From Bacillales bacterium UBA4682 (GTDB lineage: Bacteria; Bacillota_I; Bacilli_A; RFN20; CAG-288): a stretch of DNA of 64,000 bases. The stretch spans positions 72,620-136,619 of the forward strand of contig DHKY01000014.1 of the NCBI GenBank assembly GCA_002404995.1, written 5' to 3'. Below, in pieces: positions 31,355 to 49,016 of this stretch (positions are counted from its first letter, which is position 1; every line of letters begins with the position of its first letter). Under the pieces are notes generated by a model. The model was not told the DNA's origin and made no database searches. It worked only from the letters and a program-made list of their open reading frames with translations. Both the position numbers and the translations under genes were made by a program.

Positions 31355-31771
31355 TTATTCTTTTACCGGAACAGGCTTCTTCTTGGAATATCCAAGGCTG
31401 AAGGCAACCGCTGCAAGAATGACAGCAACAAAATCGAAGATCCAGAAGAGGAAGAAGAGAGCATCAAAGGAATTGCCATCGACTCCGAAAGCAACATTGG
31501 AGATGAAGAGCCTTTCGGTGTTGAGTAAAACAGCAATCGACACCGCATAGAAGACAACTGGAAGGATTCCTAAGATTCCGAAATCCTTAAAGAGGCAGAG
31601 AAGAGTTGTAACAAGTCCTAAGACAATCCTGACAACCGCGACAGGAGAAACCGGAGAAAGGTAGTTTCCGCCTCGTGCTGTGTAGAAAATCAAAGTAAGT
31701 AATCCGCAAAGGAGAGAAGCGAGGGAAAGATAGAAGCCTTTGCCTTTGGAAGCTAGGAATTTCTTCAACAT
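31355..31771 (-). CDS. Small 4-TM membrane protein (cassette 1), paralogous to 48573-49016
   Basis: RBS AAAAGGAGG lies inside the GH3 3' end, giving near-contiguous stop/start. Shares TARGGNYLSPVSPVAVV (copy 2 has TTGYFAGNTPDAAVV) and a 4-TM topology with the copy-2 protein. Confidence 0.55.
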   Translation of the reverse strand: MLKKFLASKGKGFYLSLASLLCGLLTLIFYTARGGNYLSPVSPVAVVRIVLGLVTTLLCLFKDFGILGILPVVFYAVSIAVLLNTERLFISNVAFGVDGNSFDALFFLFWIFDFVAVILAAVAFSLGYSKKKPVPVKE

Positions 31772-31772
31772 A

Positions 31773-34772
31773 CTAATTATCCTCCTTTTTACCAGCAATC
31801 CTGTTATAGATGATTAATCCAAGGGATGCAGCAGCAAGAACACTGAAGACAGATGTCAAAGCGATGAGGGTGTTATCATACCAAGTATTGACCTGGACAA
31901 TCTTGCTCGAAGAGGTAAGACCGTTCCTAGCAGCAGAATTGGCAAAGACATAAAGCTGACGATGAATTGCTTCACGCCTGTTGGACCTAAGCTTATAGTC
32001 CTTGGTAATATCGATACCCTGTAGATACTTGGCAAAGCCGGTTCCGGAAGTGCAGAACCTAGTAGTACCGGCTTCATAGGCAAGCTGAGGTTCCCTTAAG
32101 GAGCCCTGCTTCTGTCCGAAGTCCGTTGTAACAGCGCCTTGGAATCCCCATTCCTTTTCCCTGACATTCTTCCAGAGATTGGAATGATGGCCGGTCCAGA
32201 CAAGTCCCAAACGATTGAATGCACCCATGACAGCAGTGCAGCTCTTATCTTCTTTTCCCGTCGTTTCGAAAGCATATTGGAAGGCACGGAGATAGACTTC
32301 ACGGATAGCCTGCTCATTGGAGAAAGTGCAGACACCGATACGGTTGGTTTCCTGATCGTTGAGGAAGAAGTGTTTGAGATAAGGAATCGTTCCCTTGCCC
32401 CTAGCACCCTTGACCTCAGCTTCGCAGAGCTTTCCGGCAAGGAAACCGTCTTCGGAATAGTACTCGAAGTTACGGCCTCCGCAAGGAGTACGATGCGTGT
32501 TGGCAGCCGGGCCATACCAGCCGACTCCTCCGCCCCAGAGTCCTTCTTCGCCGAAGGAATCGCCGACTTCATTGGTCAGGGTTACATTCCAGGTACCGGC
32601 AATGATAGTCTCAGTCGGATATGAAACCATCAGTTCATCAGTCTTCTTGACATTCTCGGCATCATACTGCTTTGTATAGTCTTCGATGTAATTGGATTTT
32701 GTCCAAGCAGACGGGCCATCGACCGCAGTGGTAGCATTGAGTCCGACGGATTCCCTCTTATTACGTCCCTGAGCAGTTGAGGAATAATAGTCATCAAGGG
32801 TAAGCTGGTCCAGAAGCTTATCCCAGTTCTCGTTGTCATAATCAGCACCGATCATCCTAGCCAGCGTGTATTTCTTTTCGGCTCCGGTAGTGATAGAAGA
32901 GGTGTCACTGCTTCCCTTTTCATAAGCAGAAGGAGAAGTGGTTCCATCCGTCTTTTCCGAATAATAAGAAGCGATTTCCTCTAACCTCTTATTATTTGCT
33001 GAAAGATTCTTGACACCAGTTGGATAGGTTCCGTTCCAGTCCTTACGAGAGAGATAAGTGATCTTCTGGTCGCTGTCTCCAACATAATAGTTCAGATCAG
33101 TGGAATCGAATTGATTGGTAATCGTTGCATTGTTTCCGCTTAAACGATACTCATCCTTATCGAAAGATCCTTTTGTGAATTTGCGTGCTTTGGAAGCGTC
33201 GCCAGCAGCATCCATTCTGGCTTTCTGAACTCCATCCACCTTGGATTCCAGAATGTTGTTCAAGGCTTCGTGGGTTCCATTGCCGATGGCAAAATAATAA
33301 TCACCCTGCTCTAAGACATAAGTCTTGCTGTTGGTATAGTCGTAGCTGGCTAAATCTGAAAGAGAGACATCAATCGTCACTTTCTCAGACTGTCCAGGAG
33401 CAATCAAGCCGGTTTTCGCAAAGCCGACAAGCTGAATTGCACTCTTCTCGATGATTCCAGATCCGTAGGGAGCCTGGGCATAGAGTTCAACGACATCCTT
33501 GGCAGAGTAATTCGTAGAATTGTTCTTCACCGTGACTGTTGCTTTGGCTGTCTTGTTGTTCCAATCGACCTGCCTATCATCCAAGGTCTGAGTAAAGGTG
33601 GCATAGCTTAAGCCATAGCCAAAGGGGAACTGGACTTCCTCGTTGTAACGCCAGTTGCCTTTCGATACAACAGCACCAGCCTTAGAATCGGAATTTCCTC
33701 TTCCTAAGACATAATCCTCGTAACGGGTTTCAAAGTAACGGTAACCGACATAGATACCTTCCTGATAGACGAGATACTTACGGGAATCGGGGTTGACGAT
33801 ATCATCCTTATTTGCATAATCGAAGTTTCCGAAGTTCCTCATCGAAGGATTGGCTTCCACATCATAAGCATAAGTGTCCGCAAGATGTCCGCTCGGGCAG
33901 GTCTTACCGACTAAGATATCAGTTACAGCATCAAGTCCGACTTCGCCCGGACCGCCGATATAGAGGCAGCTATCGATATTGTATTCATCGAGGAAGCCAA
34001 GTTCCGGAGTATTGAAGGTATTGACTAAGACAATGCGCTTCTTAAACGGCCCGTTTTTCCTTTCTTCCAAGACAGACTTCTCTTCATCCGTTAAGGATAA
34101 GTAATCGGATGTAAGGTCAGTGCCTTCGCCGCCGATTCTTGTCAGGACAAAGACAGCAGCATCGGAATAGTCGTTATAGGAGGCTTTCCTATCCGAATCG
34201 AATTCCGAGGCATTGATTTCATTGACTTGGTTGATGACACGGAAATTCAGTGTCTTGCCAGTCCAACCAGTCTTTTCGATGAAGCCTCTCTTCTCGTCGT
34301 AATTCTTTTTATAGAAATCGTAGATAGTCTTGTTGATTTCAATCTTATCCTGGCAAGCCTTGAGCAAGTCCCTCTTCCGCTCTTCGCTGGAAGTGACACC
34401 ACCGCTTCCGGTTCCTCCAAGAGCTAAGTCGACCTGATTATATCCGAAGAATGTGACCTTAGCCTTTTCGTTGAGCGGTAAAGCATTATTTTTGTTAGTC
34501 CTTAAGACTGTTCCTTCCGCCTGGACCTGTTTTGCGACATCCCGCGCATGATTCCTAACGGATTTATAGTCAGAATAGTCGCTCTTATAGTGAATAGGAT
34601 TTTCGTTTCCGTCTCCGGTTTCAATAATCTTCGTTGAACTGATGTTGAGGAATTTGTTGATGTATCCGGACCACTCCTTGGTGACTGCAATTCCGCCGAT
34701 AGATGCGGAGAGAAGGATAGTCGATGCGGAAAGGATTGCACGCCATAATCCGGTTCTGCCGATTTTCTTCAT
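31773..34772 (-). CDS. Membrane-anchored glycoside hydrolase family 3 with permuted domain order (cassette 1)
   Basis: RBS AAGGAG. N-terminal signal/anchor and C-terminal TM LIALTSVFSVLAAASLGLIIY. The GH3 C-terminal-type domain (FPFGYGLSYATF) precedes the TIM-barrel motifs (RTPCGGRNFEYYSEDGFL, KHFFLNDQE, GFQGAVTTDFG). Confidence 0.75.
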   Translation of the reverse strand: MKKIGRTGLWRAILSASTILLSASIGGIAVTKEWSGYINKFLNISSTKIIETGDGNENPIHYKSDYSDYKSVRNHARDVAKQVQAEGTVLRTNKNNALPLNEKAKVTFFGYNQVDLALGGTGSGGVTSSEERKRDLLKACQDKIEINKTIYDFYKKNYDEKRGFIEKTGWTGKTLNFRVINQVNEINASEFDSDRKASYNDYSDAAVFVLTRIGGEGTDLTSDYLSLTDEEKSVLEERKNGPFKKRIVLVNTFNTPELGFLDEYNIDSCLYIGGPGEVGLDAVTDILVGKTCPSGHLADTYAYDVEANPSMRNFGNFDYANKDDIVNPDSRKYLVYQEGIYVGYRYFETRYEDYVLGRGNSDSKAGAVVSKGNWRYNEEVQFPFGYGLSYATFTQTLDDRQVDWNNKTAKATVTVKNNSTNYSAKDVVELYAQAPYGSGIIEKSAIQLVGFAKTGLIAPGQSEKVTIDVSLSDLASYDYTNSKTYVLEQGDYYFAIGNGTHEALNNILESKVDGVQKARMDAAGDASKARKFTKGSFDKDEYRLSGNNATITNQFDSTDLNYYVGDSDQKITYLSRKDWNGTYPTGVKNLSANNKRLEEIASYYSEKTDGTTSPSAYEKGSSDTSSITTGAEKKYTLARMIGADYDNENWDKLLDQLTLDDYYSSTAQGRNKRESVGLNATTAVDGPSAWTKSNYIEDYTKQYDAENVKKTDELMVSYPTETIIAGTWNVTLTNEVGDSFGEEGLWGGGVGWYGPAANTHRTPCGGRNFEYYSEDGFLAGKLCEAEVKGARGKGTIPYLKHFFLNDQETNRIGVCTFSNEQAIREVYLRAFQYAFETTGKEDKSCTAVMGAFNRLGLVWTGHHSNLWKNVREKEWGFQGAVTTDFGQKQGSLREPQLAYEAGTTRFCTSGTGFAKYLQGIDITKDYKLRSNRREAIHRQLYVFANSAARNGLTSSSKIVQVNTWYDNTLIALTSVFSVLAAASLGLIIYNRIAGKKEDN

Positions 34773-34849
34773 AATCTGTTACGCTCCTTGTAACTTGAAG
34801 GGATGTACTCGAGTTGTCCCTTGCTGAGAAAAGTATAATCTTCTCTTAT

Positions 34850-34896
34850 GGCAAGAAAAGGAGTTGGCAAGAAAATGCACTTTTTTGGCAAAAAAT
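34850..34896. promoter_or_regulatory. Three direct repeats TGGCAAGAAAA / TGGCAAGAAAA / TGGCAAAAAAT in the kinase-to-GH3 intergenic region (sense-strand TTTTCTTGCCA). Spacing 16 and 21 bp. Candidate LytTR-regulator binding sites.
   Basis: Seen directly. The repeats lie 78-125 bp upstream of the GH3 start. A 21-bp spacing matches the periodicity of LytTR (AgrA-type) direct-repeat sites. Confidence 0.4.
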
Positions 34897-34921
34897 GTAT
34901 TGGTACCCCTTTTTATAGGAA

Positions 34922-36214
34922 TTAAGCGGTTACATTGGCATCTTCTGGAAGTGGGAAGATGATATCTGCATTATAAATATCGTTTTCCTTGTAGAAACGG
35001 ATGTTCCCGTTGTATTTTTTCACAATGTAGCAAATGCTCTTCACACCGAAGCCGTGATATCGGTTGTCGCCCTTGGTTGAAAGAGGAAGTCCGTCCTTGA
35101 ACTGGACAGGAGTATTGCAATAGTTTTCGATGTGGACAGAGATGATATGTCCTTTCTGGCTGATCTTAAGAAGGATAAAACGCTGCTTTACATCCGTTAC
35201 TTTTTCCTCGTATTCAATCGCGTTATCCAATAGATTTCCAAACAAGGAAGTCAGATCGCCTATTCGAAGGAAACCCAAAAGGTCTTCCTTTACCATAATA
35301 TAAAAAGGAATATTCCGGCTATTGCAGATATAAGTCTTCTCACTGAGGACAGTATCAAGGGCTTTGTTTCCGGTCTTTGGAGAGCATTCGTATTCGTTGA
35401 CCGTTTTCTCTAACTCGCTGAGTTCTTCTTCGCTCCTGTTCCCACGTTCCTTGAAGTCGTTGATGAAATGCTTCAGATCGTGGGCTTTCCTGTTGAGGAC
35501 ATCGATATTGTTCTTTACCGATTCATAATACTTGTCGGATTGGTTGATGAATCGTTCCAGATAGATGTTCTCATTCACCTTGTTCTTATAGCCAAGGAGT
35601 CCGAACTGAAGCATGAGAGAAATGACATCGCAGAAGACAAGTGGAAGACGGGTGACCCAGAGTCCGTCGATTTCATAGACCTGAAGAAGGAACTGGAGAA
35701 GGTAACAGAACCTGGCTGAGAAGATGGCAATTGGAAAGACGCCCCCTCCTTTCAGAGTAACTCCTTTGGAAAGATCACTGAAGCGATAAATAATAAAACA
35801 ACAAAGTCCATAGACAACCAGCCTGACACTGACAGAAAGAAAGAACCACCCAATGGAATTAATCTGGTTTTTGAAAGGCAGGTAGATCAGGTTCTCGATA
35901 TTATGGGAAAGATTCTGGATTAGCTGAGCTCCGACACAGCAGAAGAGAAGATCTTTCAGCTTGTTTTCGAAGCAGATAATCAGTCCCAGGAAGGAGAGGA
36001 GGAATATGGTAATCGATGACAAGCCTTGAATGACTTGGTTTAAGAGGTTCGTCAGCCTGACGGAGCAGATTGCGTAGAGGGCAAACGTAATGACAGCAAG
36101 CAAAACGAAGTGTTTCCGTCTTTTGAAAAAAGGAACGAAAAGAAGCTCCGCAAAGAATATCTGGAGAATATATCCGTGAGAGGAATGAAGGACAAAAAGT
36201 TCAGACAGACTCAT
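34922..36214 (-). CDS. AgrC-like (HPK10, GHKL) membrane sensor histidine kinase (cassette 1)
   Basis: Polytopic N-terminal domain. H-box NRKAHDLKHFIN. N-box GNLLDNAIEY. G-box HGFGVKSICYIV. Start overlaps the RR stop by 4 nt. Confidence 0.75.
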   Translation of the reverse strand: MSLSELFVLHSSHGYILQIFFAELLFVPFFKRRKHFVLLAVITFALYAICSVRLTNLLNQVIQGLSSITIFLLSFLGLIICFENKLKDLLFCCVGAQLIQNLSHNIENLIYLPFKNQINSIGWFFLSVSVRLVVYGLCCFIIYRFSDLSKGVTLKGGGVFPIAIFSARFCYLLQFLLQVYEIDGLWVTRLPLVFCDVISLMLQFGLLGYKNKVNENIYLERFINQSDKYYESVKNNIDVLNRKAHDLKHFINDFKERGNRSEEELSELEKTVNEYECSPKTGNKALDTVLSEKTYICNSRNIPFYIMVKEDLLGFLRIGDLTSLFGNLLDNAIEYEEKVTDVKQRFILLKISQKGHIISVHIENYCNTPVQFKDGLPLSTKGDNRYHGFGVKSICYIVKKYNGNIRFYKENDIYNADIIFPLPEDANVTA

Positions 36215-36918
36215 AGTTTCTCTCCGAAATACTTCGTCAGCTCATTCAGGAAAGAGGCCTTATACACTCGGCTGAGAGGCAACGCCTCTGTTCGGATAAA
36301 GACCTCGCTGTTATTGAAGTTATCAACATACCGCAGATTCACAAGAAGGGAACGATTGATTTCGGAGAAGCCCTGTCCCTTAAACCTGTCTTTGATACTA
36401 TCCATCGATCCCCGCCTCCGATAGGTGTTGTTCTCCAGATGGAAATAAAGATAATGCTTATTGCTTTCGATATACCTGATATCCGGAATTCTCACCTTGT
36501 GGACTTCGTTGGAAGAACTGATGACAATAGATTTTTCTTCCTCTTTTCCAATATGGGAAAGGAATTTGTTCCTCTTAATACGGAACAATTCATAGTCCAT
36601 CGGCTTGATCAGGAAATCATAGGCGTTCACTTCGTACCCATCGACAGCATACTGTACCCTCTCAGTCAAAAAGACCAGGCAAACATCCTTATCGACTTCC
36701 CGGAGCTTCTTCGATGCTTCGATTCCGTTCCTTTCCGGCCTGGCCACATCCATGAAGATAAGACTCGCATCACCTTTATATTTCGAAACAAAATCTGCCC
36801 CGTTCCGGAAATAAGAAACGGAAAAGGAAACTTTGTTCTCTTCCTGATAACGGGCAAGATAATTCCGGATCAAATCAATCCATTTTTCCTGGTCTTCAAC
36901 GACTGATATTTTAATCAT
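36211..36918 (-). CDS. LytTR-family response regulator (cassette 1)
   Basis: Receiver MIKISVVEDQE...FMDVARPERNG plus a C-terminal LytTR domain (IRYIESNKHYLYFHL...). No SD sequence. An extended -10 TGTGTTATAAT sits 6 nt upstream of the ATG. Confidence 0.8.
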   Translation of the reverse strand: MIKISVVEDQEKWIDLIRNYLARYQEENKVSFSVSYFRNGADFVSKYKGDASLIFMDVARPERNGIEASKKLREVDKDVCLVFLTERVQYAVDGYEVNAYDFLIKPMDYELFRIKRNKFLSHIGKEEEKSIVISSSNEVHKVRIPDIRYIESNKHYLYFHLENNTYRRRGSMDSIKDRFKGQGFSEINRSLLVNLRYVDNFNNSEVFIRTEALPLSRVYKASFLNELTKYFGEKL

Positions 36919-36935
36919 ACCGAAATTATAACACA
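36919..36935 (-). promoter_or_regulatory. Extended -10 (TGTGTTATAAT) placed so that transcription would start at or near the ATG of the LytTR regulator. Possible leaderless mRNA.
   Basis: Sequence geometry only. No SD motif between the -10 and the ATG. Confidence 0.3.
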
Positions 36936-37052: not shown

Positions 37053-37075
37053 TCAACTACAGAGGAGGTAACAGA

Positions 37076-37926: not shown

Positions 37927-38841
37927 TCAGACAATTTTCTTACGGAGCCAAGAGGAGAAGAAATCAACAAGGACAATCCTGATGACGATTCCGAAGGTAT
38001 CCGCACCGAGATGAGAATAGGAGTTCTTACTCAAATCTAGAAGAATAGAGAATCCGATACCAGCATCCGAGGAAAGGACAAGGCCAAGGGTTGTAGCCGT
38101 ACGAAGATTGATGTCCAAACGATACAATCCGACCGAGAGAAAGCTAGGAATGACTTCTGGAACGACACCGCACAAGACACGCTGGACTGGACCGGCACCT
38201 TGAGCGTCCAAGGCTTCAAGGCCGTCAAGATCCGCTTCATCAAGCTGATCCGCATAGAGTTTGCCGATCCTACCGATGGAATGAATGCTTAAACATAAGA
38301 TTGCAGTAAGCCAAGTCTGACCGGATAAAGCGACAAAGAAAAGAGCAAGAAGCAGTTCAGGGAAGGTACGGATAAGGATCAGAATGAATTCGGAGATTCC
38401 CGCCCATTTCTTGAAGAGGACATGGGAAGCAAAGAAACCAAAGGGAATTGAAATCAGGAAACCGACACTAGTACCGATAATCGTAATACCTAAGGTGACT
38501 AAGCATCCATAGATGACACCCTCGTTGAATTTGTAAAGTCCCTTTCCAACGAAGTAGTCCCAATCGAAGAGGAAGAAGTCATGGCAGCGCTGAGCGACAA
38601 GCTCACCATTGATTGGACTGTCAAAGGCATTCTTAATACCGATGTATTTTCCCATGAAGATAAGGACGATGACAAAGATGACAAAGGAAACCAGATTGAC
38701 AATCCACCTTTTCGGACGTGCCTGATAAGCAGACACCGGATCATTGTAATGGGTCCTTCCCTGTTTATCGGCAGTAAAGAAGTAAAGGCATTTTTTAAAG
38801 AAGTTAGGCTTCTTTTCGCTTTGATTCGTTTTCTGTTTCAT
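37927..38841 (-). CDS. PhnE-like ABC transporter permease
   Basis: Polytopic. Consecutive with a second permease, an ATPase and an SBP. Homology to phosphonate-type permeases inferred from operon context and TM pattern. Confidence 0.6.
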   Translation of the reverse strand: MKQKTNQSEKKPNFFKKCLYFFTADKQGRTHYNDPVSAYQARPKRWIVNLVSFVIFVIVLIFMGKYIGIKNAFDSPINGELVAQRCHDFFLFDWDYFVGKGLYKFNEGVIYGCLVTLGITIIGTSVGFLISIPFGFFASHVLFKKWAGISEFILILIRTFPELLLALFFVALSGQTWLTAILCLSIHSIGRIGKLYADQLDEADLDGLEALDAQGAGPVQRVLCGVVPEVIPSFLSVGLYRLDINLRTATTLGLVLSSDAGIGFSILLDLSKNSYSHLGADTFGIVIRIVLVDFFSSWLRKKIV

Positions 38842-39860
38842 CGTAGTTTTCTCACCAATGTATTCGAAACAATCTGAAGTATAGCAACAATAAGGAAAAG
38901 AGGGACAATCCTTGCTCCAACATAGTCATACCAGGCATTTTCGATGAAAATCTCCAAGGCATTCCTGTAAGTAGAGCTGATTCCGACATAGCCTAAGACA
39001 ACTGAGGCACGAATATTGATTTCCAAGGTATAGATAGAATAGGCGAAGAACATCGGCTTGACTTCCGGATGAAGACCTAAGAAAACGGATTGAAGGTTCG
39101 TAGCACCACAGGAACGCATCGATTCAAACGGACGCCTATTGAGCGTTTCAAGATACTCGTACCTCATCTGATACCTGATACCAAGAGAGAATAATCCGAT
39201 GGATAGAACGGCCGGAAGGACAGTTCCGATTCCCATAATCATAGCAAAGATGACACAGATGACAAACCTAGGAATACAGCGAAGGATATCATTGAATACC
39301 TTAACGATGGTACGTAGGATACGATTGTGATTGACATTATTGGCACAGAGATAATAAACCGGAATAGCAATCACAGCACCTAAGACAGTAGCCCTGAAAT
39401 TGATACAGAAAATCTGTAAGAAAGGTAGAGAATTGATCAGAGGAGTCTGAATACCGACCGCAAAGCTCTCCCATCCGAATTTCCACCAACCAGCCCAGTC
39501 TTTCGTACGAAGAGGGTTGGGAGTGAATAAATTTTTGAAATTGTTTCCAAAGGCAACCCAGTTAATACGGACATCCTTCTCATAATTGAATGGAAGGAAG
39601 CTAAGGACAATAACAAGGATGAGTGTAGCAAGAATCAGAATCCTTTTTGTGATGCGAGGCTTGCGAATCGTTTTCACCAGACTCCCATCCTGTTCAGGAG
39701 AAAGATCAACCTCGACATCCTTATAAAAGGCATGGTCAAGCATTATTCCGAACTTGGTTGCTTTGAACCATTTCTTACGATACTTTTTCCAATCAGCGCT
39801 TTTCCTCTTCCTATAGGAACGAAAATCGAGCTTTTCGACTTTTTCAGTATTTTCTACCAT
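38838..39860 (-). CDS. PhnE-like ABC transporter permease with an N-terminal cytoplasmic extension
   Basis: Polytopic. ~80-aa charged N-terminal extension. Translationally coupled to the downstream permease. Confidence 0.6.
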   Translation of the reverse strand: MVENTEKVEKLDFRSYRKRKSADWKKYRKKWFKATKFGIMLDHAFYKDVEVDLSPEQDGSLVKTIRKPRITKRILILATLILVIVLSFLPFNYEKDVRINWVAFGNNFKNLFTPNPLRTKDWAGWWKFGWESFAVGIQTPLINSLPFLQIFCINFRATVLGAVIAIPVYYLCANNVNHNRILRTIVKVFNDILRCIPRFVICVIFAMIMGIGTVLPAVLSIGLFSLGIRYQMRYEYLETLNRRPFESMRSCGATNLQSVFLGLHPEVKPMFFAYSIYTLEINIRASVVLGYVGISSTYRNALEIFIENAWYDYVGARIVPLFLIVAILQIVSNTLVRKLR

Positions 39861-39865
39861 AGAAA

Positions 39866-40666
39866 TTACCTTTTCTCAGCTGGTTCTTCTGGAATCTCAT
39901 CAAGCTTGGCTCCGAGATTTTCGTTACTGTTCAGATGACGTCCATAGATTTTAAAGCAGGCCTCATCGGTTACTTCTTCCGGCTTTCCATCAAAGACAAT
40001 CTGACCAGCACGGACACCGATAATGCGGGTAGAATATTTCTTTGCCAAGTCGACATGATGCCTATTAGCAATAATCGTGATTCCCCTCTTGTTGATACGG
40101 ACAAAGTCGTTCCTGACGGCAATCGTCGTTGCCGGATCAAGAGAAGCGACAGGCTCATCAGCTAAAAGAATCTTCGGCTCCTGAGTTAAGGCACGGGCTA
40201 AGGCAACACGCTGTTGTTGACCGCCGGAAAGCTGATCAGCACGAACATAAGCTTTATCAAGAATACCGAACTTATCAATGTTCTGCAAAGCAAGAAGCTT
40301 TTCCCGTTTGGTATAGATTCCGAACAAAGTTTCGAAAGTGTTATGATAACCAACACGTCCAGAAAGAACATTCTTGTATACGGAACTGCGGCGGACAAGA
40401 TTGAAGGACTGGAAAATCCTTCCGATGTTCCGTCTTTGTTCACGGAGCTTCTTACCTTTCAGCTTGCTGATATCAACGCCATCAATCAGCACTTCTCCGT
40501 TTTGAATATCGTGCCTTTTGTTAATACAGCGGATCAGCGTGGATTTTCCAGCTCCGGATAAGCCTATAATGGAAATAAACTCTCCATCCTCCACTGTCAG
40601 ATTCACATCTTTCAGTGCCTGGAAGCCATTCGGATAGACTTTGTCGACATGTTTCAGTTCAAGCAT
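39866..40666 (-). CDS. PhnC-like ABC transporter ATP-binding protein
   Basis: MLELKHVDKVYPNGFQALKDVNLTVEDGEFISIIGLSGAGKSTLIRCIN closely resembles phosphonate-importer ATPases. Walker A, signature LSGGQQQR, Walker B ILLADEP. Confidence 0.8.
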   Translation of the reverse strand: MLELKHVDKVYPNGFQALKDVNLTVEDGEFISIIGLSGAGKSTLIRCINKRHDIQNGEVLIDGVDISKLKGKKLREQRRNIGRIFQSFNLVRRSSVYKNVLSGRVGYHNTFETLFGIYTKREKLLALQNIDKFGILDKAYVRADQLSGGQQQRVALARALTQEPKILLADEPVASLDPATTIAVRNDFVRINKRGITIIANRHHVDLAKKYSTRIIGVRAGQIVFDGKPEEVTDEACFKIYGRHLNSNENLGAKLDEIPEEPAEKR

Positions 40667-40756
40667 AGGCTTTCTCCTTACTTTTCTCGTATGTTTTAAT
40701 AAACGACAAGCCTAGCCCAAAAAGGGCTAGGCTTGCTAAATTCCAGATTTCAGAAA

Positions 40757-41950
40757 CTACTTGCTAGCGTGTTCGTTCGTCCAACGATACCTTTCACGGG
40801 CAGCATCGTAATCGGAATCTTTGCCTTCCCTGTAATTAGTATGAGAGTAGATCTGGTAAAGCAGATAAGCACCAGAAGGCTGTCCATCGTTATCGATATC
40901 GTAATCGGTATCGGTAGCACCGGTTTCACCCTTCTTGATTCCGTTATCGTGGATGCTTCCGTCTTTGACAGCGCCCTTAAGAGCAGTCTTAATGGCTTCT
41001 TTCTTATCATCTTCAAGCTTGCCATAAGCGCAGACAGTGTCGTTCCTGATTGGGTCAAGAACAGCTGCAGTATAGGTCTTGGTGAAGACGGATTCATCGT
41101 TATGGTACTTGCTATCGGTCTGAACAAAAGCGGATCCGTAACGGATATCGAAGAATCCGACAGCAACATCGATGACACCATTCCTGAGGTTATCAACCAT
41201 TTCAGGATAGGACTTCTGAGTTGCGTTGATCCTAGCTAATTTCTTATCATTTTCAGAAAGCTTGTCATAAGCGGCTTTATCGAAGAAGCCTTTGGTATAT
41301 CCCTTGTCATATAAATACTTAGTCGGATAAATGAAACCAGAGGAAGAAGTAGCAGCCATAGTTCCCCAGACAGCATTGCCAGCATGCCTTTCATCTAAGG
41401 AAATTTCACCATCACCATTGGTATCAAGGGCAGGTTTGTTAAGAGCAATACGTTCAGAATCCTTAAGAGTGAAGACAACAGAGCAATAGAAGTTGACTAA
41501 AGTAGAGGACTGTTCTCCACGATAGACGTATCCATCAGCACCATTCCTATGCTTACGCTGATTCTCACGGGCAGCCTCATCTAATCCTTTGTAGTCATCA
41601 GCCTGGACTTTGTAGCCAGCACGGCCAGCAGAAAGAAGAAGGGAAACAGCACCCGGCTGTTCGATCGTCCTCTGGGCATAGCCAGAAGCCGTAAGGAAGC
41701 CACCGTCGATTTGACCAGCTGCAAGAGCAGTGGTAGTGGCAGCATAAGTGGAGCCGACATCGATGCTGAAGGAATAACCAGGAGCATACTTGTCAAGGAT
41801 TGGGGCTAAAGCTTTCGCACGGGTCAGAAGAGTAGCAGGGTCATTGGACGGAACTAACTGAAGGTGAATCTTTTTGCCTTTGTTTCCGCAGCCAGTAAGG
41901 CTTAAGGATAATAAGGCAAGCGTAACGACAGAAGTCAGAGTCTTTTTCAT
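40757..41950 (-). CDS. PhnD/SsuA-like substrate-binding lipoprotein with a ~120-aa C-terminal extension
   Basis: RBS AAGGAGG. Lipobox LSLTGCGNK. Venus-flytrap motifs (KIHLQLVPSNDP...AAGQIDGGFL). The ORF is open upstream to 42028. Confidence 0.6.
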   Translation of the reverse strand: MKKTLTSVVTLALLSLSLTGCGNKGKKIHLQLVPSNDPATLLTRAKALAPILDKYAPGYSFSIDVGSTYAATTTALAAGQIDGGFLTASGYAQRTIEQPGAVSLLLSAGRAGYKVQADDYKGLDEAARENQRKHRNGADGYVYRGEQSSTLVNFYCSVVFTLKDSERIALNKPALDTNGDGEISLDERHAGNAVWGTMAATSSSGFIYPTKYLYDKGYTKGFFDKAAYDKLSENDKKLARINATQKSYPEMVDNLRNGVIDVAVGFFDIRYGSAFVQTDSKYHNDESVFTKTYTAAVLDPIRNDTVCAYGKLEDDKKEAIKTALKGAVKDGSIHDNGIKKGETGATDTDYDIDNDGQPSGAYLLYQIYSHTNYREGKDSDYDAARERYRWTNEHASK

Positions 41951-42403
41951 ACTGAATTTAATTCCTCCTTTGTATGAAAAACAGTCAACAGCTGTAGTAA
42001 GGAAGAAATCACTCAGAATGGATACCATTTCTGAACCCGGTTAAGGGAGATTTAATTGAGAAGCGGATAGTCCTCATTTAATGGCTGAGGGTAGAAACAG
42101 AGTCACCATAACCAACTCACTATATCCGATTTCTTTCCTGCTTTATTTTAAGGCAGGAATACCCATTACAGAAAAAATAGCGCTTACAGTCAGAATGATC
42201 TACTCGTTGGAACATCCATTTTTTACTGATTTTATGGGAAAAGCTGGCAATTATAAAAAATCAGTTACATTTTTTCAAAATAGTACCTGAAAAGGTAAAC
42301 TAAGGTAATAATGTTGGATTTTTGTATATTAATTTCGTCTTTGTTTTGTTCTTCCGCTCTTTTTCTTTATAATTTTCATATATTAAAAAAAGAGGAGATT
42401 CGT

Positions 42404-43255: not shown

Positions 43256-43300
43256 AGCTTAATAATTTTCTAAAATCCGATTTTCGTGAGGAATTACTTA

Positions 43301-44016
43301 TGCTTAAAATTGCCATTGTCGAAAACGATCCAGAGCAGATACAGACGACTTCCGAAAGGTGCACAAGATACTGCAAAAGGAATGACTTGTCCTGTTCAAT
43401 CCAGTCTTTCCAAAATGGATTTGACTTCCTTGAAAGCGACTTTTCGCTTTTCGATGTCATTTTCATGGACATCGACAGGCCCGGCATCAACGGAAGGGAA
43501 ACTTCGGTTAAAATCCGGGAAAAGGGGGTCACGACTCCTCTTATTTTCGTTACGAATCTTCCTCAATATGCCATCGATGGATACAAAGTCCAAGCCTTGG
43601 ACTTCATTCTCAAGCCAAGGACGTTTGCTGATTTTACTCTAGCAAGGAAGAGAGCACTTCTCAGCACGGAAAAGAGCGAAGACAAAACTTTTGTTCTCAA
43701 TATCCATGGTTCTTTCCAGAAGTTTAAGAACAGTGATGTCATTTATTTTGAGAGGGTTCGCCACGACGTGCATCTTCATCTCCAAAATGGTGAGATGATT
43801 GTTTTTCGTTCTTCACTGAATCGAGTCGAGCCCTTACTCGATTCCCAGATCTTCATCAAGTGCAATTCCGGATGCATCATTAATCTCAGCCGAGTGAAGT
43901 CCAGGGACGGAGATGTCCTGATCAGGGAAAACGGGGATAATATCTCTATTTCCCGTTCCCGGAAAAAAGAGACAAGGGCGAAGCTGAACGAATACTATCG
44001 GGCAAATCGGATATGA
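43301..44016 (+). CDS. LytTR-family response regulator (cassette 2)
   Basis: Receiver MLKIAIVENDPE...FMDIDRPGINGRE plus LytTR C-terminus. Paralogous to 36211-36918. Confidence 0.8.
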
Positions 44017-45317
44017 ACGAAAGCGGAATCATTGGCATTGTCACGAGATTCGGCCTTGCCTCCTTCTATCTGGAAATCCTTACCGCTAGGATAATTGTCC
44101 TTTTCTCAGCCAAGAAACGGAAAATTTTTCCCATCCGTCTGCTCCTATGTCTTCTTCTTTGTTTTGCATGCTATTTCCTTCCTTCGGTAAAAATAGGACA
44201 TTTTTCCTATTCCTATTGTATTTGTGTTGTCATCGCCTTTCTCTGTGGATTATTCCTTTATAAAGAAAAAGTTCCTCTTATCTTCTATAGTTCAATTGCT
44301 GCCTGGGGTATTCAGCATATCGCATGGAACCTACTCAGTATCGTCTTTGACTTGATTCCAAATATTCGTTTGTATCCGGTAATTGAAATCGAATCAATTT
44401 ATTATTGCGGATTTCTGTTCATCTATGGAATCTTCTTCCTTTTCTTTTATTTGTTCCATATCGAATTCCGGTACAGCAAAAAGCATTTCGTTTCCTTTGT
44501 CTTTGCTTCCCTAAGGCTAGTTGCGACAAGGTTCCTTTCCCAATCGATTACTTCTTGGAATATCCCCATCCGAATCTACACAAGCCTGACTGCCTTTCTT
44601 TCCCTGGTCATTAGGATCGCCTATCCTTATCTTTCGGTTCTGATTGAGAAAGAGAGAAATCTAGTCAACGAGAAAAAGAACCTTGAAAGCAGGATCACCT
44701 TGCAGGCAAAGCAACAGGAACTATCCAAGGAAACCATCGATGTCATCAATAGGAAGTTCCATGACAGGAAAAACCAGATTCTATCCCTGGAACGAAGGCC
44801 TCAGAGCCAGTCGAAGGATTTTGCAAAAGAACTTGGAAACAGCATTGATATCTATAAGGATATTGCTCGGACCGGAAACGAAGCAGTCGACATTATCATC
44901 ACTCAGAAGTCACTCCTATGCACATCAAAGAATATCCGCTTCACCTATATTCTCGATGGAAAAGCATTGGATTTCAGGAGCCGGAGCGATATCACCTCGT
45001 TATACGGAAACATTATTGATAACGCCATTGAAGCAACAAGTCTCGAAGAAGGGGAATTCCGCCTCATTAAGCTCAAGACCTATAAACAGAACGGCTTTGC
45101 CATCATCAGCGAAGAGAACTACTGTCACAAAAACATCCAGTTCGGCAAAACCGGTCTTCCGATATCCTCAAAACAGGATTCCATCAATCACGGCTACGGA
45201 ACCAAATCCATCCAATACATTGTCCATAACTACCATGGACAGTTATCCAGGAAGCAGGAAGACGGGATTTTCTACCTGTCCATTCTCCTACCGCTATCTA
45301 CCAAAAAAGACGCCTGA
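44013..45317 (+). CDS. AgrC-like (HPK10, GHKL) membrane sensor histidine kinase (cassette 2)
   Basis: 6-7 TM N-terminal domain. H-box NRKFHDRKNQIL. N-box GNIIDNAIEAT. G-box HGYGTKSIQYIV. Overlaps the RR stop by 4 nt. Confidence 0.75.
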   Translation: MNESGIIGIVTRFGLASFYLEILTARIIVLFSAKKRKIFPIRLLLCLLLCFACYFLPSVKIGHFSYSYCICVVIAFLCGLFLYKEKVPLIFYSSIAAWGIQHIAWNLLSIVFDLIPNIRLYPVIEIESIYYCGFLFIYGIFFLFFYLFHIEFRYSKKHFVSFVFASLRLVATRFLSQSITSWNIPIRIYTSLTAFLSLVIRIAYPYLSVLIEKERNLVNEKKNLESRITLQAKQQELSKETIDVINRKFHDRKNQILSLERRPQSQSKDFAKELGNSIDIYKDIARTGNEAVDIIITQKSLLCTSKNIRFTYILDGKALDFRSRSDITSLYGNIIDNAIEATSLEEGEFRLIKLKTYKQNGFAIISEENYCHKNIQFGKTGLPISSKQDSINHGYGTKSIQYIVHNYHGQLSRKQEDGIFYLSILLPLSTKKDA

Positions 45318-45333
45318 TTACCGATTGTGTCAT

Positions 45334-45428
45334 TTTTCTGTCCGAAAATGGCACAAAGTCAAGCGCTTACATTTGGAAATGGTATTGTTTTCTTGCTCCG
45401 AAAGCCCTTTCTTATCGTCAAGGGCTTT
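45334..45428 (+). promoter_or_regulatory. HK2-GH3 intergenic region with two imperfect direct repeats (ATTTTTCTGTCCGAAAA and ATTGTTTTCTTGCTCCGAAAG, 54 bp apart) sharing the TTTTCTTGC core with cassette 1, then a stem-loop AAAGCCCT...AGGGCTTT
   Basis: Seen directly. The hairpin has a weak U-tract, so it may be an attenuator or partial terminator. Confidence 0.35.
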
Positions 45429-45448
45429 TGGAAGAAAGGAACAAACAA

Positions 45449-48400
45449 ATGAATCCGAAACTATTTCGTGGATTAACTGTTGTCAGTGCTTTCTTCCTAG
45501 CATCAAGCGTCAGGGCAAGTACTTTAAGGGAAAAGTATGCAACCCAGCTTGACCAGACTTTGGGAACAAAGTCTAGCGAAACCCGCTATGAGAAGGTCGA
45601 CGATGGTGATCAATCTGACCCGTGGAACTTCAAAGGAAAGTTCAAAACGGCCAAGGAAGCAGTCGAAGGCTACAAGGAATTCTCTATCCGTGAAGCCCAG
45701 GAGACTTTCGCTCTCTTAAAGAACGAGAACGCAGCTCTTCCGCTGAAGAAGAACGCCAAGATTACCAGGATGGGATTACGTTCCTACGCTCCTGTCTATG
45801 GAAACTCCGGTGGTTCTATTCCGGATAAGAACATCATCGACAATGGGAACAAGATCTTCGAAGCTTTCAAGGCAAGAGGATTCGATCTCAATCCGAGCAG
45901 GTTCAAAGCCTATGAAAACTACTTCAAGGATAAAGCCTGGGGCGGAAAAGGATTCGGTGCGACTCCGGCTGAATACTCCGATGTTACCGTTACCGATTCT
46001 GTTGCGGAACTCTCCTTAGCAGAATTAAAGGAAAGCAATCCGGACTTCAACAAGGACTACGGTTCTTATTCCGATGCAGCCGTTGTCGTTGTCGGACGTC
46101 CTGGCGGAGAATCCAAGACTTACGATGTCGGAGCTAATCCGGAAACGACTACTGGGAACATCAGGGGTCTCTCCGATAAGGAAAAGGAAATCATCAAAGA
46201 AGCCGAAGACCACTTCGACAAAGTCATTGTCCTTGTCAACTCCACTACGACCAGGGAAATCGAAGAACTCAAAAACGATCCGAATATTGATTCTATCCTC
46301 TGGATCGGTTATCCGGGCGCTTATGGTTTCTTAGCAGTTGCAGATGTCTTAAACGGAACGGTCTCTCCGAGCGCTTACTTAGGCGACATCTATACCGCTA
46401 ACAACAAGACCAATCCGGCAAGGCAGTCCTTCGGTAACATTCCGTGGGCAAATGCAGCTGACTTCGAATCTGCTGAAAACGTCAATTCCTACTTAGTCGA
46501 AGCAGAGGGCATCTACCAAGGATACCGTTACTATGAAACCCGTTATAACGATATCGTCAACGGAAGGTACAATGCCCAGAGTGCAAAAGCCGGAACCTAT
46601 ACGACTGCTGATTCCAAAGTCGCTACGGTCGACGGCAACTGGAACTATGACTATGAAGTGACCTATCCGTTCGGCTACGGATTAAGCTACACCACTTTCG
46701 AGCAGACTCTTGATGAAGTCAAGATCGATGGCAACAAGAAAAATGCCCTAGTTACCGTCACGGTCAAGAACACCGGAAAGGTCAATGGCAAGAAAGCTAT
46801 CCAGCTTTACGCTCAGACTCCTTATACCGAATACGACCGTACCAACGGAGTCGAAAAAGCCGCCATCCAGCTTGTCGATTACGAAAAAACGAAAGAACTC
46901 AAGCCAAACGAAAGCCAGACCATCACCCTTCATGTCGATAGGTCAAACATTGCTTCCTATGACTACAAGAAGGCCAAGACCTGGATTCTCGATGCTGGCG
47001 AATATTCCTTCGCAATCGGCGACAACTCTCACGATGCTTTGAACAACATCCTCGCAAAGCAAGGCAAGACAACCGCCAATGGCAGGGACTACAACGGCGA
47101 CAGCAGCAAAGTCTATTCTTGGAACTGGACCGAATTCGATAGCGCTACGTTTGCCTATTCGGAAACTGGAAAGGAAATCACGAACCAGCTCTCCGATGGA
47201 GATTACTCCAGGGATTTGAATACCTTCAAGCCAAATACTGTCACCTATTTCTCCCGTTCTGATTTCAACGGAACTTTCCCGAAATCCTATGAAGGTCTTT
47301 CTGCCGATGGTCGTCTCAAAGAGCTTCTCAAGAACGACTTCATTCAGTTAAAGACCGATGAAGACACTTCGGACGTCAAGTTCGGTGATACTTCTTCCTC
47401 CTTGACTTTAGCGGATCTCAAAGGCGCCGATTTCTCTGATCCACGCTTTGATGAACTTGCCAACAAAGTCACTGTTGACGAATTCTTAGACTTCGCAAGC
47501 AACGCTTTCCACAATATCCAGAAGATTGAATCGGTCGGATATGCTGGAAACAAAGCAGATGACGGCCCGGGCGGCAGTGATACAAGCTACCTTGATTCCG
47601 GTTCTTATCAGGGCAACAAGTTCACGGATACCGACGAAGCAAAAGTCGGCGAAAACAAGTACAGGGGAACCCGTACTGCTCCGACTCCTCAGAACTTAGC
47701 CTATTCCTTCAACAAGGAATTAGCCTATGAAAACGGTGAAATCATCATCGGAGAAACCTCTCTGATCCTGAACCTTCCGATCATCATCGGTCCTGGTGGA
47801 AACCTCCATCGTCATGGATACAATGGACGTGGCGGAGAATACTATTCTGAAGATCCAATCCTCTCCGGCTATATCGGCTCTGCTGTTGTCCAGGGTGCCC
47901 AGTCCAAGGGCTGCCTTGTCAACATCAAACATGCTGCCTTCAACGATCAGGAACGTAACCGTTCTGGTATCGCTGTCTTCAGGAACGAACAGAAAGCACG
48001 TGAGTTAGAACTCCGCAACCTCAATGCCAGGTTCACTGCCAAAGGCAAACCAGCAAGCTTCTACGATGACGAAACCAAAGCCAATACGTATAAAAATGGT
48101 GCCTTAGGCGTCAGGACTTCCTATAACCGTATCGGTGCCGTTGCTTCTAGCGCAAACTATGCTGTCCAGCAGACCATCAGGCGTGATGAATGGGGATTCC
48201 ATGGTTACTCCGTTACCGATTTCACCGGTGTCTCCTTAAAGGCAGCTCCGAAGGAATCCATCCTTGCTGGAACTTGTGCCTTCTGCGGCTTTGGAAAACC
48301 GAGCCTTGACTACTGGAATACAGAATCCCTAACTAAGGATAAGAATAGGGCCAATGCAATCCACACCAACATCAAATATGTTCTCTATTCTCTTGCAAAC

Positions 48401-48571
48401 TCCAATGCCTTGAATGGTGTTAACTCCAGCTACAAGGCCTACACTGTCAAGCTCAACACTTGGTGGAGAACTGCCTATAAGGCTGCCATCATCACAACTT
48501 CCATCTTGACCGGTGCCTTTGTTGTCTTAACCGGTGTCTTCACCTTTGTCCGCAAGAAGGAGGAAAAATAA
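45449..48571 (+). CDS. Membrane-anchored glycoside hydrolase family 3 with permuted domain order (cassette 2)
   Basis: RBS AAAGGA. Signal peptide and C-terminal TM AIITTSILTGAFVVLTGVFTF. FPFGYGLSYTTF precedes HRHGYNGRGGEYYSEDPIL, KHAAFNDQE and GFHGYSVTDFTG. Paralogue of 31773-34772. Confidence 0.75.
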   Translation: MNPKLFRGLTVVSAFFLASSVRASTLREKYATQLDQTLGTKSSETRYEKVDDGDQSDPWNFKGKFKTAKEAVEGYKEFSIREAQETFALLKNENAALPLKKNAKITRMGLRSYAPVYGNSGGSIPDKNIIDNGNKIFEAFKARGFDLNPSRFKAYENYFKDKAWGGKGFGATPAEYSDVTVTDSVAELSLAELKESNPDFNKDYGSYSDAAVVVVGRPGGESKTYDVGANPETTTGNIRGLSDKEKEIIKEAEDHFDKVIVLVNSTTTREIEELKNDPNIDSILWIGYPGAYGFLAVADVLNGTVSPSAYLGDIYTANNKTNPARQSFGNIPWANAADFESAENVNSYLVEAEGIYQGYRYYETRYNDIVNGRYNAQSAKAGTYTTADSKVATVDGNWNYDYEVTYPFGYGLSYTTFEQTLDEVKIDGNKKNALVTVTVKNTGKVNGKKAIQLYAQTPYTEYDRTNGVEKAAIQLVDYEKTKELKPNESQTITLHVDRSNIASYDYKKAKTWILDAGEYSFAIGDNSHDALNNILAKQGKTTANGRDYNGDSSKVYSWNWTEFDSATFAYSETGKEITNQLSDGDYSRDLNTFKPNTVTYFSRSDFNGTFPKSYEGLSADGRLKELLKNDFIQLKTDEDTSDVKFGDTSSSLTLADLKGADFSDPRFDELANKVTVDEFLDFASNAFHNIQKIESVGYAGNKADDGPGGSDTSYLDSGSYQGNKFTDTDEAKVGENKYRGTRTAPTPQNLAYSFNKELAYENGEIIIGETSLILNLPIIIGPGGNLHRHGYNGRGGEYYSEDPILSGYIGSAVVQGAQSKGCLVNIKHAAFNDQERNRSGIAVFRNEQKARELELRNLNARFTAKGKPASFYDDETKANTYKNGALGVRTSYNRIGAVASSANYAVQQTIRRDEWGFHGYSVTDFTGVSLKAAPKESILAGTCAFCGFGKPSLDYWNTESLTKDKNRANAIHTNIKYVLYSLANSNALNGVNSSYKAYTVKLNTWWRTAYKAAIITTSILTGAFVVLTGVFTFVRKKEEK

Positions 48572-48572
48572 A

Positions 48573-49016
48573 ATGATGGCTAAACTGAAATCAAAGCTGA
48601 CCCTTCGCAACATTCTTCTTCTCTCTTCTGTCGTCATGCTCATCGTCGGATGGATCATCTATCTTGTTGTTGCCACTACGGGATACTTTGCCGGCAATAC
48701 GCCAGATGCCGCCGTCGTGACTCTCAGCATCTTCTACATTCTTATCGCTTTAGCCTTCATCTCCTTTGATGACAAGCTTCAGAAGTTCGATACGCTTTTC
48801 TTCTTCACGTTAGCCGCTTTCCTCATCTTAGCCTTTGTCTTCTTCGTCTTAGACAAGGAGGAAGTCATCGGCGATAGGTTAATTCCAGTCAACCATCCTC
48901 AGAAAGAAGTCGAAGCAGTCGGTGCTTCCATCACTGGAATCGTCTTCTATCTTCTCAGCATCATTCTCTTAATCGTTTCTTCCTTCTTATCCTTCAAGAA
49001 GAAAGCAGCAGAATAA
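48573..49016 (+). CDS. Small 4-TM membrane protein (cassette 2)
   Basis: RBS AAGGAGG within the GH3 3' end. ATGATG start 2 nt after the GH3 stop. Paralogous to 31355-31771. Confidence 0.55.
   Translation: MMAKLKSKLTLRNILLLSSVVMLIVGWIIYLVVATTGYFAGNTPDAAVVTLSIFYILIALAFISFDDKLQKFDTLFFFTLAAFLILAFVFFVLDKEEVIGDRLIPVNHPQKEVEAVGASITGIVFYLLSIILLIVSSFLSFKKKAAE

Follow-up and report, generated by a model that had tools for sequence, protein, structure and literature searches.

Two diverged copies of a LytTR regulator, histidine kinase, permuted GH3 and four-helix membrane protein module in a Bacillales genome, a putative sense-and-degrade unit

A histidine kinase with a HATPase_c_5 domain, paired with a LytTR response regulator, is the class of two-component system (TCS) to which the Agr, Com, Blp and Fsr peptide systems belong. 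In 64,000 nucleotides from Bacillales bacterium UBA4682 (GenBank assembly GCA_002404995.1, contig DHKY01000014.1, positions 72,620 to 136,619; this whole stretch is called the window here), such pairs stand directly upstream of a surface glycoside hydrolase of family 3 (GH3) and a small membrane protein with four transmembrane (TM) segments (4-TM protein). What would a kinase of this class do beside a glycosidase? The window contains two old, diverged copies of this four-gene module, made of a LytTR response regulator (RR), a HATPase_c_5 histidine kinase (HK), a permuted GH3 and a 4-TM protein. Judging from gene order, operator-like repeats and protein families, we favour with moderate confidence the reading that each copy is a self-contained "sense and degrade" unit, whose TCS would switch on the surface GH3 and its 4-TM partner.

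Copy 1 lies on the minus strand and consists of RR1 (36211..36918), HK1 (34922..36214), GH3-1 (31773..34772) and 4TM-1 (31355..31771). Copy 2 lies on the plus strand, with RR2 (43300..44016), HK2 (44013..45317), GH3-2 (45449..48571) and 4TM-2 (48573..49016). Pfam gave all of the domains that an earlier note on this DNA had assigned by eye, namely Response_reg and LytTR in RR1 (4e-13 and 6e-16) and RR2 (1e-11 and 1e-12), HATPase_c_5 in HK1 (5e-23) and HK2 (6e-21), and in both GH3s the permuted order Glyco_hydro_3_C, Fn3-like, Glyco_hydro_3. The two RR genes end with TGA and overlap the HK genes by 4 nt (ATGA; RR1 end 36211 and HK1 start 36214, HK2 start 44013 and RR2 end 44016). GH3-1 has 999 residues, with hydropathy placing an N-terminal signal or anchor at residues 12-30 and a C-terminal TM helix at 970-988. 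GH3-2 has 1040 residues from the ATG at 45449, which is a likelier start than the TTG at 45428 that opens its longest open reading frame (ORF), and it also carries a signal peptide and a C-terminal TM helix by hydropathy. The 4-TM genes are translationally coupled to the GH3 genes in both copies: their ATG stands 1 nt past the GH3 stop, and their AAGGAGG Shine-Dalgarno sequence is formed by codons of the Lys/Glu-rich cytoplasmic tail of the GH3. Their likelier starts (ATG 31771 and ATG 48573) lie inside the longest ORFs (31355-31798 and 48534-49016) and give proteins of 138 and 147 residues, each with four hydrophobic segments. Thus the eight ORFs, their order and orientation, the overlaps, the two hydrophobic ends of each GH3 and the ribosome-binding sites within the GH3 stop regions were all as the earlier note had described them; the layout of copy 2 also stood, except that RR2 opens at 43300 and not 43301.

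The kinases have 5-6 clear TM segments within their first ~210 residues, joined by short loops (at least 5 are predicted in HK1 and 6 in HK2). The phospho-acceptor residues are present, the His in H-boxes reading AHDLKH (HK1) and FHD(M)KN and the Asp in the receiver motif FMD(V/I).

The relationship between the two copies was analyzed by local alignment. The identity was 32% for the regulators (z=45 vs shuffles), 29% for the kinases (z=57) and 35% for the GH3s (z=167). The 4-TM pair was not detectable by pairwise comparison (z 0.8; BLASTP E 0.2). Its homology was seen at the profile level: the 4TM-1 family (42 cluster representatives from an exhaustive HMMER search) and the 4TM-2 family (16 proteins) matched over their full length in hhalign (96.4% probability, E 1.3e-9), and reversing either alignment lowered the probability to about 1%. 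As judged from these alignments, all four genes are paralogous pairs, the 4-TM pair only at profile level; the earlier claim that all four pairs are clearly homologous holds for RR, HK and GH3 and needs this restriction for the fourth. Because the similarity between the copies has almost disappeared at the DNA level, the duplication is old, which agrees with the earlier view of an old paralogous module rather than a recent repeat. Each cassette lineage has its own orthologues in many genomes (identity 55-95% for the GH3-1 type and 74-89% for the GH3-2 type), so the duplication predates both lineages. In the window the regulator ends of the copies face each other across 6.4 kb. This mirror orientation, which the earlier note had stressed, is incidental, because both cassette types have direct orientation in the related loci L001 and L007 and cassettes stand in tandem in L036/L037 and L041.

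The order RR-HK-GH3-4TM is conserved in other genomes. It was found in L001, L002/3, L004, L005-L008, L009, L017/18 and L046-L051, in carriers whose GC content ranges from 23% to 59%. The neighbourhoods of GH3-1 orthologues always contained RR(LytTR)-HK(HATPase_c_5)-GH3-small protein between unrelated flanks, and the same order was seen around 4TM-2 orthologues. A metagenome scan seeded with the 4-TM protein alone returned 26 loci, which held the full set wherever enough upstream DNA was available, with the exception of L028 (a weak GH3 match, and no RR or HK found). A gene-order variant also exists, HK-RR(LytTR)-GH3-x-4TM-GH3 in L019, whose 4-TM relative is 28% identical. Scanning genome contigs with GH3-1 gave one close relative, Bacillales bacterium UBA4694; the other seven matches were unrelated GH3s without the cassette. 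In conclusion, the module occurs widely among bacteria of the gut and rumen. Related genomes frequently have two or three RR-HK-GH3 cassettes next to one another, in tandem or direct orientation (L001, L007, L036/L037, L041, L026/L044), and an additional gene, small or lipoprotein-like, can separate HK from GH3 (L002, L038 and L043 have a GDSL esterase there, and L001 an 86-residue membrane ORF). The module family thus undergoes local expansion and tolerates insertions downstream of the operator.

If the TCS controls the enzyme operon, a binding site for the LytTR regulator would be expected in the HK-GH3 spacer. A putative RR1 operator was found there by pattern search and position weight matrix (PWM) (34861..34895, minus strand). 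It consists of the direct repeats TTTTTTGCCA and TTTTCTTGCCA, whose cores are exactly 21 bp apart, and a third TTGCCA stands at 34854-34849. The exact pattern TTGCCA-N15-TTGCCA has one occurrence in the 64 kb (34865-34891) and one in each of L031, L033, L035 and L037, in every case within the HK-GH3 spacer; besides the window, a TTGCCA-type pair was present in this spacer of 12 orthologous loci of the copy-1 type (type 1). The type-1 repeats begin just past the kinase stop codon and are T-rich, with variants TTCGCCA, TTTGTCA and ACCAAATTT. The type-1 PWM scored 35.8 bits at the operator versus 13.9 bits at the next best site of the window, and the scan gave no further type-1 operator above background in the window, so that no wider regulon is visible there. 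To quantify the spacing, the best 9-nt direct repeat at spacings of 9 to 40 was determined in 26 non-redundant HK-GH3 spacers. Spacing 21 was obtained in 8.6 cases and spacing 22 in 2.3, compared with about 0.8 per spacing in shuffled sequences.

A different putative operator was found for RR2 by pattern search (45327..45372, plus strand), in which GTGTCA is followed 21 nt on by ATGGCA and then by an AAGCGCTTACAT element. This pattern is unique in the window, with 0.24 occurrences expected by chance. In type-2 spacers the second half-site lies 21-22 nt downstream of GTGTCA, and the distance from the first half-site to AAGCGCTT is 34-35 nt in 6/6 type-2 loci. An AAGCGCTTACA element was considered as a -35 box and rejected, because its spacing to candidate -10 boxes is inconsistent between the types; no role was assigned to it.

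Experiments have established the LytTR operator layout as 9-bp repeats separated by a 12-bp gap, 4-11 bp upstream of the -35 box (PMC6193735). The cassettes have the same layout, two ~9-bp direct repeats with a 12-bp gap, to which binding of the regulator is predicted. From this match we infer activation, rather than repression, of each GH3-4TM operon by its own regulator, and control of these operons by the regulators seems to us fairly probable. The half-sites TTGCCA and GTGTCA also suggest that the paralogues have diverged in DNA specificity.

Candidate promoters accompany these repeats. For GH3-1, a candidate -10 box TATACT (34832..34837, minus strand) lies 33 nt downstream of the start of repeat 2, at the same distance as in L031. 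Upstream of RR1, an extended -10 box TGTTATAAT was read from the sequence 6 nt before the ATG (36925..36933, minus strand), and a second sigma-70-like site, TTGACA-17-AATAAT, stands at 37009-36981. For RR1 of the window and in L004, L005, L007, L008 and L046, a good or extended -10 box stands 6-8 nt upstream of the RR start, and there is no Shine-Dalgarno sequence. This suggests leaderless RR-HK mRNAs in many cassettes, possibly including copy 1. The RR gene of copy 2 differs and has a normal GAGGA ribosome-binding site.

The GH3 proteins belong to a known family of enzymes. The best PDB matches of GH3-1 were Thermotoga neapolitana Bgl3B (2x40, 1.6e-74), the permuted GlyA1 (5k6l, 5e-70, with a match that spans the N-terminal sandwich domain) and 5wug. 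The nucleophile Asp lies in TTDF (GH3-1) and VTDF (GH3-2), which align with MSDW of Bgl3B, and the acid/base Glu lies in GGEG (GH3-1, GGEGTD) and GGES (GH3-2), which align with SGEG. We take the Bgl3B residues to be D242 (nucleophile) and E458 (acid/base), as numbered after Pozzo et al. 2010. By sequence comparison, both GH3s are members of the permuted GlyA1 subfamily with both catalytic residues intact, and the product is most likely an extracellular, membrane-tethered exo-beta-glycosidase, with its activity predicted. GlyA1 is described as a broad beta-glucosidase/beta-xylosidase acting on short oligosaccharides (cello- and xylo-) and as the enzyme defining a permuted subfamily typical of gut microbes (PMC5104943; see also PMC11233000). 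GlyA1 (PDB 5K6L) and BrGH3A share with our proteins the order of sandwich, Fn3-like domain and TIM barrel and the gut or rumen habitat. Unlike the module enzymes, they were studied as soluble recombinants from metagenomic clones, and the abstracts describe no membrane tethering, regulatory context or 4-TM partner. NCBIfam gave no equivalog-level name to any of ten proteins, and the GH3 equivalog scores were far under the cut-offs.

The earlier note proposed surface glycans as the substrates. This proposal found no support, since the closest characterized enzymes are beta-glucosidases/beta-xylosidases and the neighbouring genes point to another source. The window contains genes for GH16, GH94, GH2, GH43, two PF00756 esterases, a GDSL esterase, and sugar transporters of the ATP-binding cassette (ABC) and major facilitator superfamily (MFS) types; GH2, GH43 and esterase genes recur beside cassettes in other genomes. 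Because of these glycan-use genes, dietary plant oligosaccharides are favoured over the bacterium's own surface glycans. A Gram-positive polysaccharide utilization locus (PUL) combines carbohydrate-active enzymes, a regulator and a carbohydrate transporter. The module has an enzyme and a regulator, its conserved core is devoid of transporters, and sugar ABC and MFS transporters lie elsewhere in the window.

The 4-TM proteins had no match in Pfam or NCBIfam. The 4TM-1 family comprises ~100 clusters, all unnamed, whose members are called "hypothetical protein" wherever a source names them, and the 4TM-2 family comprises 16 clusters. An AlphaFold2 model of 4TM-1 (mean predicted local distance difference test score 96) is a plain four-helix membrane bundle. 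The best structural neighbours in a fold search were claudin/TARP tetraspans, barely above generic helical bundles, so the modelled fold is uninformative on function. More can be learned from P0178, a single polypeptide of 1075 residues found downstream of RR-HK on contigs from at least two independent samples, in which GH3 and 4-TM protein are fused. The anchor helix of its GH3 runs directly into the first helix of the 4-TM domain. This geometry would therefore put the N and C termini of the unfused 4-TM protein on the cytoplasmic side and leave its two conserved loops outside. In family 1 the loops read Y..RGGN.LSPVS and SNV..GVDGN.FD; those of family 2 read ATTGYF.G..P and DKEEVVGEM.IPVNHP. 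Another protein, P0165 (229 residues), joins an RR-family receiver to the C-terminal half of the 4-TM protein. As a candidate second fusion it was set aside, since it may have arisen by deletion or by chimeric assembly.

Taken together, these data are consistent with the following mechanism. The RR-HK pair would have a promoter of its own, and in copy 1 its mRNA may be leaderless. Upon stimulation, the polytopic HPK10-type kinase would phosphorylate its LytTR regulator, which would bind the two direct repeats of the HK-GH3 spacer, whose centres are 21-22 bp apart, and activate the weak promoter of the bicistronic GH3-4TM operon. In copy 1, attenuated read-through would probably reach an esterase lipoprotein gene. 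The GH3, a membrane-tethered exo-beta-glycosidase of the GlyA1 subfamily, may work with the 4-TM protein beside its anchor helix. The stimulus would not be an Agr-type peptide; the likeliest candidates are a plant-derived glycoside or oligosaccharide, or a product of basal GH3 activity. The signal and the role given here to the 4-TM protein are proposals. The copies may act as two insulated channels for two substrates, because they differ in enzyme, kinase and operator half-sites (TTGCCA vs GTGTCA). The earlier idea of a sense-and-degrade module with two separate channels thus agrees with the two operator motifs.

Several observations weigh against this mechanism. The kinases lack a larger extracellular domain to which sugar binding could readily be ascribed. 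The second half-site of the type-2 operator is degenerate (ATGGCA, AAGTCA), and the conservation of the repeats is not fully independent evidence, as the loci share ancestry. Autoregulation, which is typical of LytTR systems, is not evident: inspection by eye gave no matching repeats upstream of the RR genes, except a TTGTCA...TTGTCA pair in L046. The substrate specificity of the GH3s cannot be read from the sequence, and the conserved four-gene core contains no transporter, which is unusual for a nutrient-acquisition locus. There are no published experiments on any member of the module. Moreover, the TCS diverges much faster than the GH3 across type-1 orthologues. At a GH3 identity of 64-65% (e.g. 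L001, L024, L030, L041), the RR identity was 35-36% and the HK identity 30-32%; at a GH3 identity of 65-70% (e.g. L004, L031-L037), both were 47-52%. The TTGCCA-type operator is present in both the fast- and the slow-diverging TCS groups. The fast divergence of the TCS suggests rapid sensor evolution or an exchange of TCS modules.

The class of the TCS raises the question whether the module is a form of Agr-like peptide quorum sensing, with the peptide encoded and processed elsewhere and the GH3 serving as a density-controlled public good. Agr (AgrBDCA), ComDE, BlpRH and FsrCA share with the cassettes a polytopic sensor with a HATPase_c_5 kinase domain and a LytTR regulator, Agr-like systems also have two direct repeats 21 bp apart beside a weak promoter, and a TCS that diverges faster than the enzyme is what would be seen in specificity-group evolution. 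However, neither AgrB (PF04647), AgrD nor a C39 exporter was found by Pfam among the 47 non-overlapping ORFs of the window, in agreement with the earlier statement that no agrBD pair lies nearby, and the Pfam annotation of the syntenic loci shows no AgrB either. Nothing beyond the four core genes, be it a neighbouring gene or a small ORF, is found repeatedly among the annotated loci. The spacers of the cassettes (44-150 nt) hold promoter and operator elements and leave no room for an AgrD-type pro-peptide gene within the cassettes. In a phmmer search against the PDB, HK1 had no sequence match to AgrC or any solved structure and RR1 matched in its receiver domain only, so that any similarity of the cassette HK and RR to AgrC and AgrA is below detection there. 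The description of the kinase as AgrC-like can thus be kept at the level of the Pfam family and not beyond it. In contrast to Agr-like systems, the cassettes also lack a double-glycine peptide, their output is a glycosidase, and their repeats precede the effector operon and not visibly the TCS operon. The system is of the HPK10/LytTR two-component class and fails a defining feature of Agr-type loci; we consider control by such a peptide very unlikely.

LytTR regulators were first named for the control of autolysis, and one or both ends of the GH3s are anchored in the membrane of the cell that makes them. It is thus conceivable, if improbable in our judgement, that the enzymes trim the bacterium's own surface polymers under a TCS that senses the state of the envelope, similar to the control of murein hydrolases by LytSR. 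The GH3 family does include NagZ-type N-acetylglucosaminidases, but the best matches of our proteins are beta-glucosidases/beta-xylosidases with the KHF..N.QE..R motif and not NagZ, and the characterized permuted member GlyA1 acts on cello- and xylo-oligosaccharides (PMC5104943). The recurrent neighbours GH2, GH43 and esterases also speak against a role in envelope maintenance, as does the 4-TM protein, which matches neither LrgA/CidA (PF03788) in Pfam and NCBIfam nor any other Pfam family. The null hypothesis, that TCS and GH3-4TM are neighbours by descent only and share no regulation, has nothing specific in its favour. The gene order is kept across contexts and GC contents and survives the gene-order variant, and operator-like repeats lie exactly where a LytTR regulator would need them, so mere adjacency is hardly credible. 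A further possibility refines the sense-and-degrade reading rather than opposing it. The GH3-4TM complex could itself be the sensor and relay substrate turnover or occupancy through the 4-TM protein to a kinase of the intramembrane type. Such enzyme-coupled sensing would fit kinases that have short loops only, and a 4-TM protein that is always co-encoded and in one lineage fused to the GH3. When the alignment motifs of the two 4-TM families were mapped by hand onto the TM predictions, the best conserved positions of each family fell in the two loops predicted to be extracytoplasmic. No terminator separates HK from the GH3 promoter, so that basal read-through could maintain a sentinel amount of the complex. 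BceAB-type transporters, which inform BceS-type kinases, would offer a parallel by analogy. On the other side, there is no evidence of contact between 4-TM protein and kinase, the only robust fusion joins the 4-TM protein to GH3 and not to HK, and the fold search gave only generic four-helix bundles. We regard this refinement as tentative and rather unlikely. Were it true, GH3 and 4-TM protein might form an "enzymatic antenna" that makes a glycan sensor of a quorum-sensing-class kinase; turnover at the surface enzyme would be sensed within the membrane by way of the 4-TM protein, the signal would then need catalysis and not a ligand of the kinase, and enzyme, kinase and operator would together insulate the copies. 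This, too, we put forward only as a speculative possibility.

The sense-and-degrade reading, which we prefer, can be compared with known arrangements. The LytTR Regulatory Systems HdrRM/BrsRM of Streptococcus mutans (PMC6193735) also combine a LytTR protein with a small membrane protein and have repeats with a 12-bp gap upstream of the promoter. In these systems the regulator has no receiver, there is no kinase, and the adjoining membrane protein (e.g. DUF2154) is an inhibitor. In contrast, the cassettes contain a full TCS, and their membrane protein follows the GH3 and is coupled to the enzyme gene. Systems of the BceS-BceAB type share a minimal-loop kinase co-encoded with a substrate-handling membrane complex, and the likeness is one of logic only: the cassettes contain no ABC transporter and their kinase and regulator are of different families. 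The closest precedent is Butyrivibrio proteoclasticus B316, where each of three LytTR regulators (PUL7, 21, 33) has as its neighbour a secreted GH3 that carries a C-terminal TM helix (Kelly et al. 2010, PMC2914790). The authors suggested carbohydrate sensing for these loci. The LytTR RR beside a C-terminally anchored GH3, in several copies per genome, is shared with our module. The account is a one-sentence genomic remark, and the passages of PMC2914790 consulted mention no kinase class, 4-TM partner, operator or experiment. B. proteoclasticus belongs to the Lachnospiraceae, while the window comes from a lineage of Bacilli that reads AGG as Met. Thus the arrangement is indeed not a textbook one, as the earlier note had remarked, but it is not new, because the LytTR-GH3 adjacency has been on record since 2010. 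The core LytTR-GH3 association and the permuted GH3 subfamily are already known; full-text literature searches turned up nothing on the 4-TM family, on the fusion or the operators, or on kinases of this class in such a setting, and the 4-TM partner, the GH3::4TM fusion and the operators appear to be undescribed.

How glycan availability is sensed has been worked out far less well for Gram-positive bacteria of the gut and rumen than for Bacteroidetes. In this compact and self-contained module, a surface glycosidase and an unnamed family of membrane proteins are combined with kinases of a class known almost exclusively from peptide pheromone systems. The parts open to experiment are its two operator motifs and two promoters, the naturally occurring GH3::4TM fusion, and paralogues in the same genome that differ in specificity. 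These could reveal what an HPK10 kinase senses when there is no peptide, and whether the 4-TM protein serves as anchor, chaperone or co-sensor.

The window has an unusual genetic code. As judged from codon usage and alignments, AGG encodes Met and not Arg across the window (e.g. 25434-51534). In 16 genes of the region AGG is threefold commoner than ATG (158 vs 51 codons). Both receiver domains have AGG at the Met positions of the canonical D-x-x-M-P-x-M-x-G motif, and with AGG as Met the motif of RR1 reads MDVA(M)PE(M)NG. When 58 homologues were aligned with GH3-1, the residue opposite its 18 AGG codons was Met in 63%, and Arg was not among the six commonest residues. In the same alignment, ATG codons corresponded to Met in 70% and CGT codons to Arg in 84%. 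No tRNA gene was found in the 64-kb window, hence the decoding tRNA was not seen there. An AGG-to-Met reassignment has been described for Candidatus Enterosoma, which belongs to family CAG-288 (PMC13092985), and the code of the window matches this known reassignment. One 4-TM homologue carries the NCBI label Candidatus Enterosoma sp., and among the related loci the AGG-rich, ATG-poor signature was seen only in L007, L026, L039 and L044. Every translation of the window by the standard code therefore shows R in place of M at AGG codons; the protein motifs quoted in the earlier note had been read in this way, and many R in them are really M. Expression of the module genes must allow for this code.

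Hairpins occur in the leaders of both GH3 genes. Upstream of GH3-1, the 5' untranslated region (5'-UTR) contains a hairpin with the stem AAGGGA / TCCCTT and a conserved CUCGAG-containing loop (34798..34822, minus strand). Among the leaders of the window, L007, L009, L026, L035 and L037, the loop (A/U)CUCGAGUA is conserved and the stem varies with compensating changes; these are only 6 leaders and RNAalifold support is weak. This hairpin matched no Rfam family. A 5'-UTR hairpin AAAGCCCTT / AAGGGCTTT lies just upstream of the ribosome-binding site of GH3-2 (45401..45428, plus strand), with analogues in L005 and L007.

Each copy ends with a terminator. An intrinsic terminator-like hairpin with a 12-bp stem and a T run lies 3' of 4TM-1 (31312..31339, minus strand), and an intrinsic terminator with a 15-bp stem and a T run lies 3' of 4TM-2 (49027..49059, plus strand). 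Beyond the first of these, on the same strand, are the genes of an esterase lipoprotein (PF00756, Pfam Esterase 1e-10, lipobox LTSC) and a 119-residue membrane protein (29982..31288), followed by another terminator (29945-29974, minus strand). This pair also follows the cassette in L004, and it is probably a downstream, attenuated part of the copy-1 unit. The start of the longest esterase ORF (31345) is probably wrong, because the hairpin at 31312-31339 would lie inside the extension; a strong AGGGAGG site precedes the ATG at 31288, and the frame from this ATG begins with a lipoprotein signal whose end reads LTSC.

The 6.4-kb interval between the copies contains a short-chain dehydrogenase/reductase gene, a four-gene ABC transporter operon and a DegV gene. 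The ABC operon (37927-42028, minus strand) encodes a "phosphonate-binding" PF12974 binding protein, two permeases and one ATPase, and is preceded by a purine riboswitch aptamer (42048-42147, minus strand; Rfam RF00167, 49.6 bits, over the gathering score). It is probably a purine-related uptake system rather than one for phosphonate. A separate phosphorelay cluster is located at 23132-28715 (minus strand), which encodes a hybrid kinase of 1093 residues with SBP_bac_3 domains and two receiver stretches, a protein with GGDEF, receiver and HD-GYP-type domains, and a small Hpt protein.

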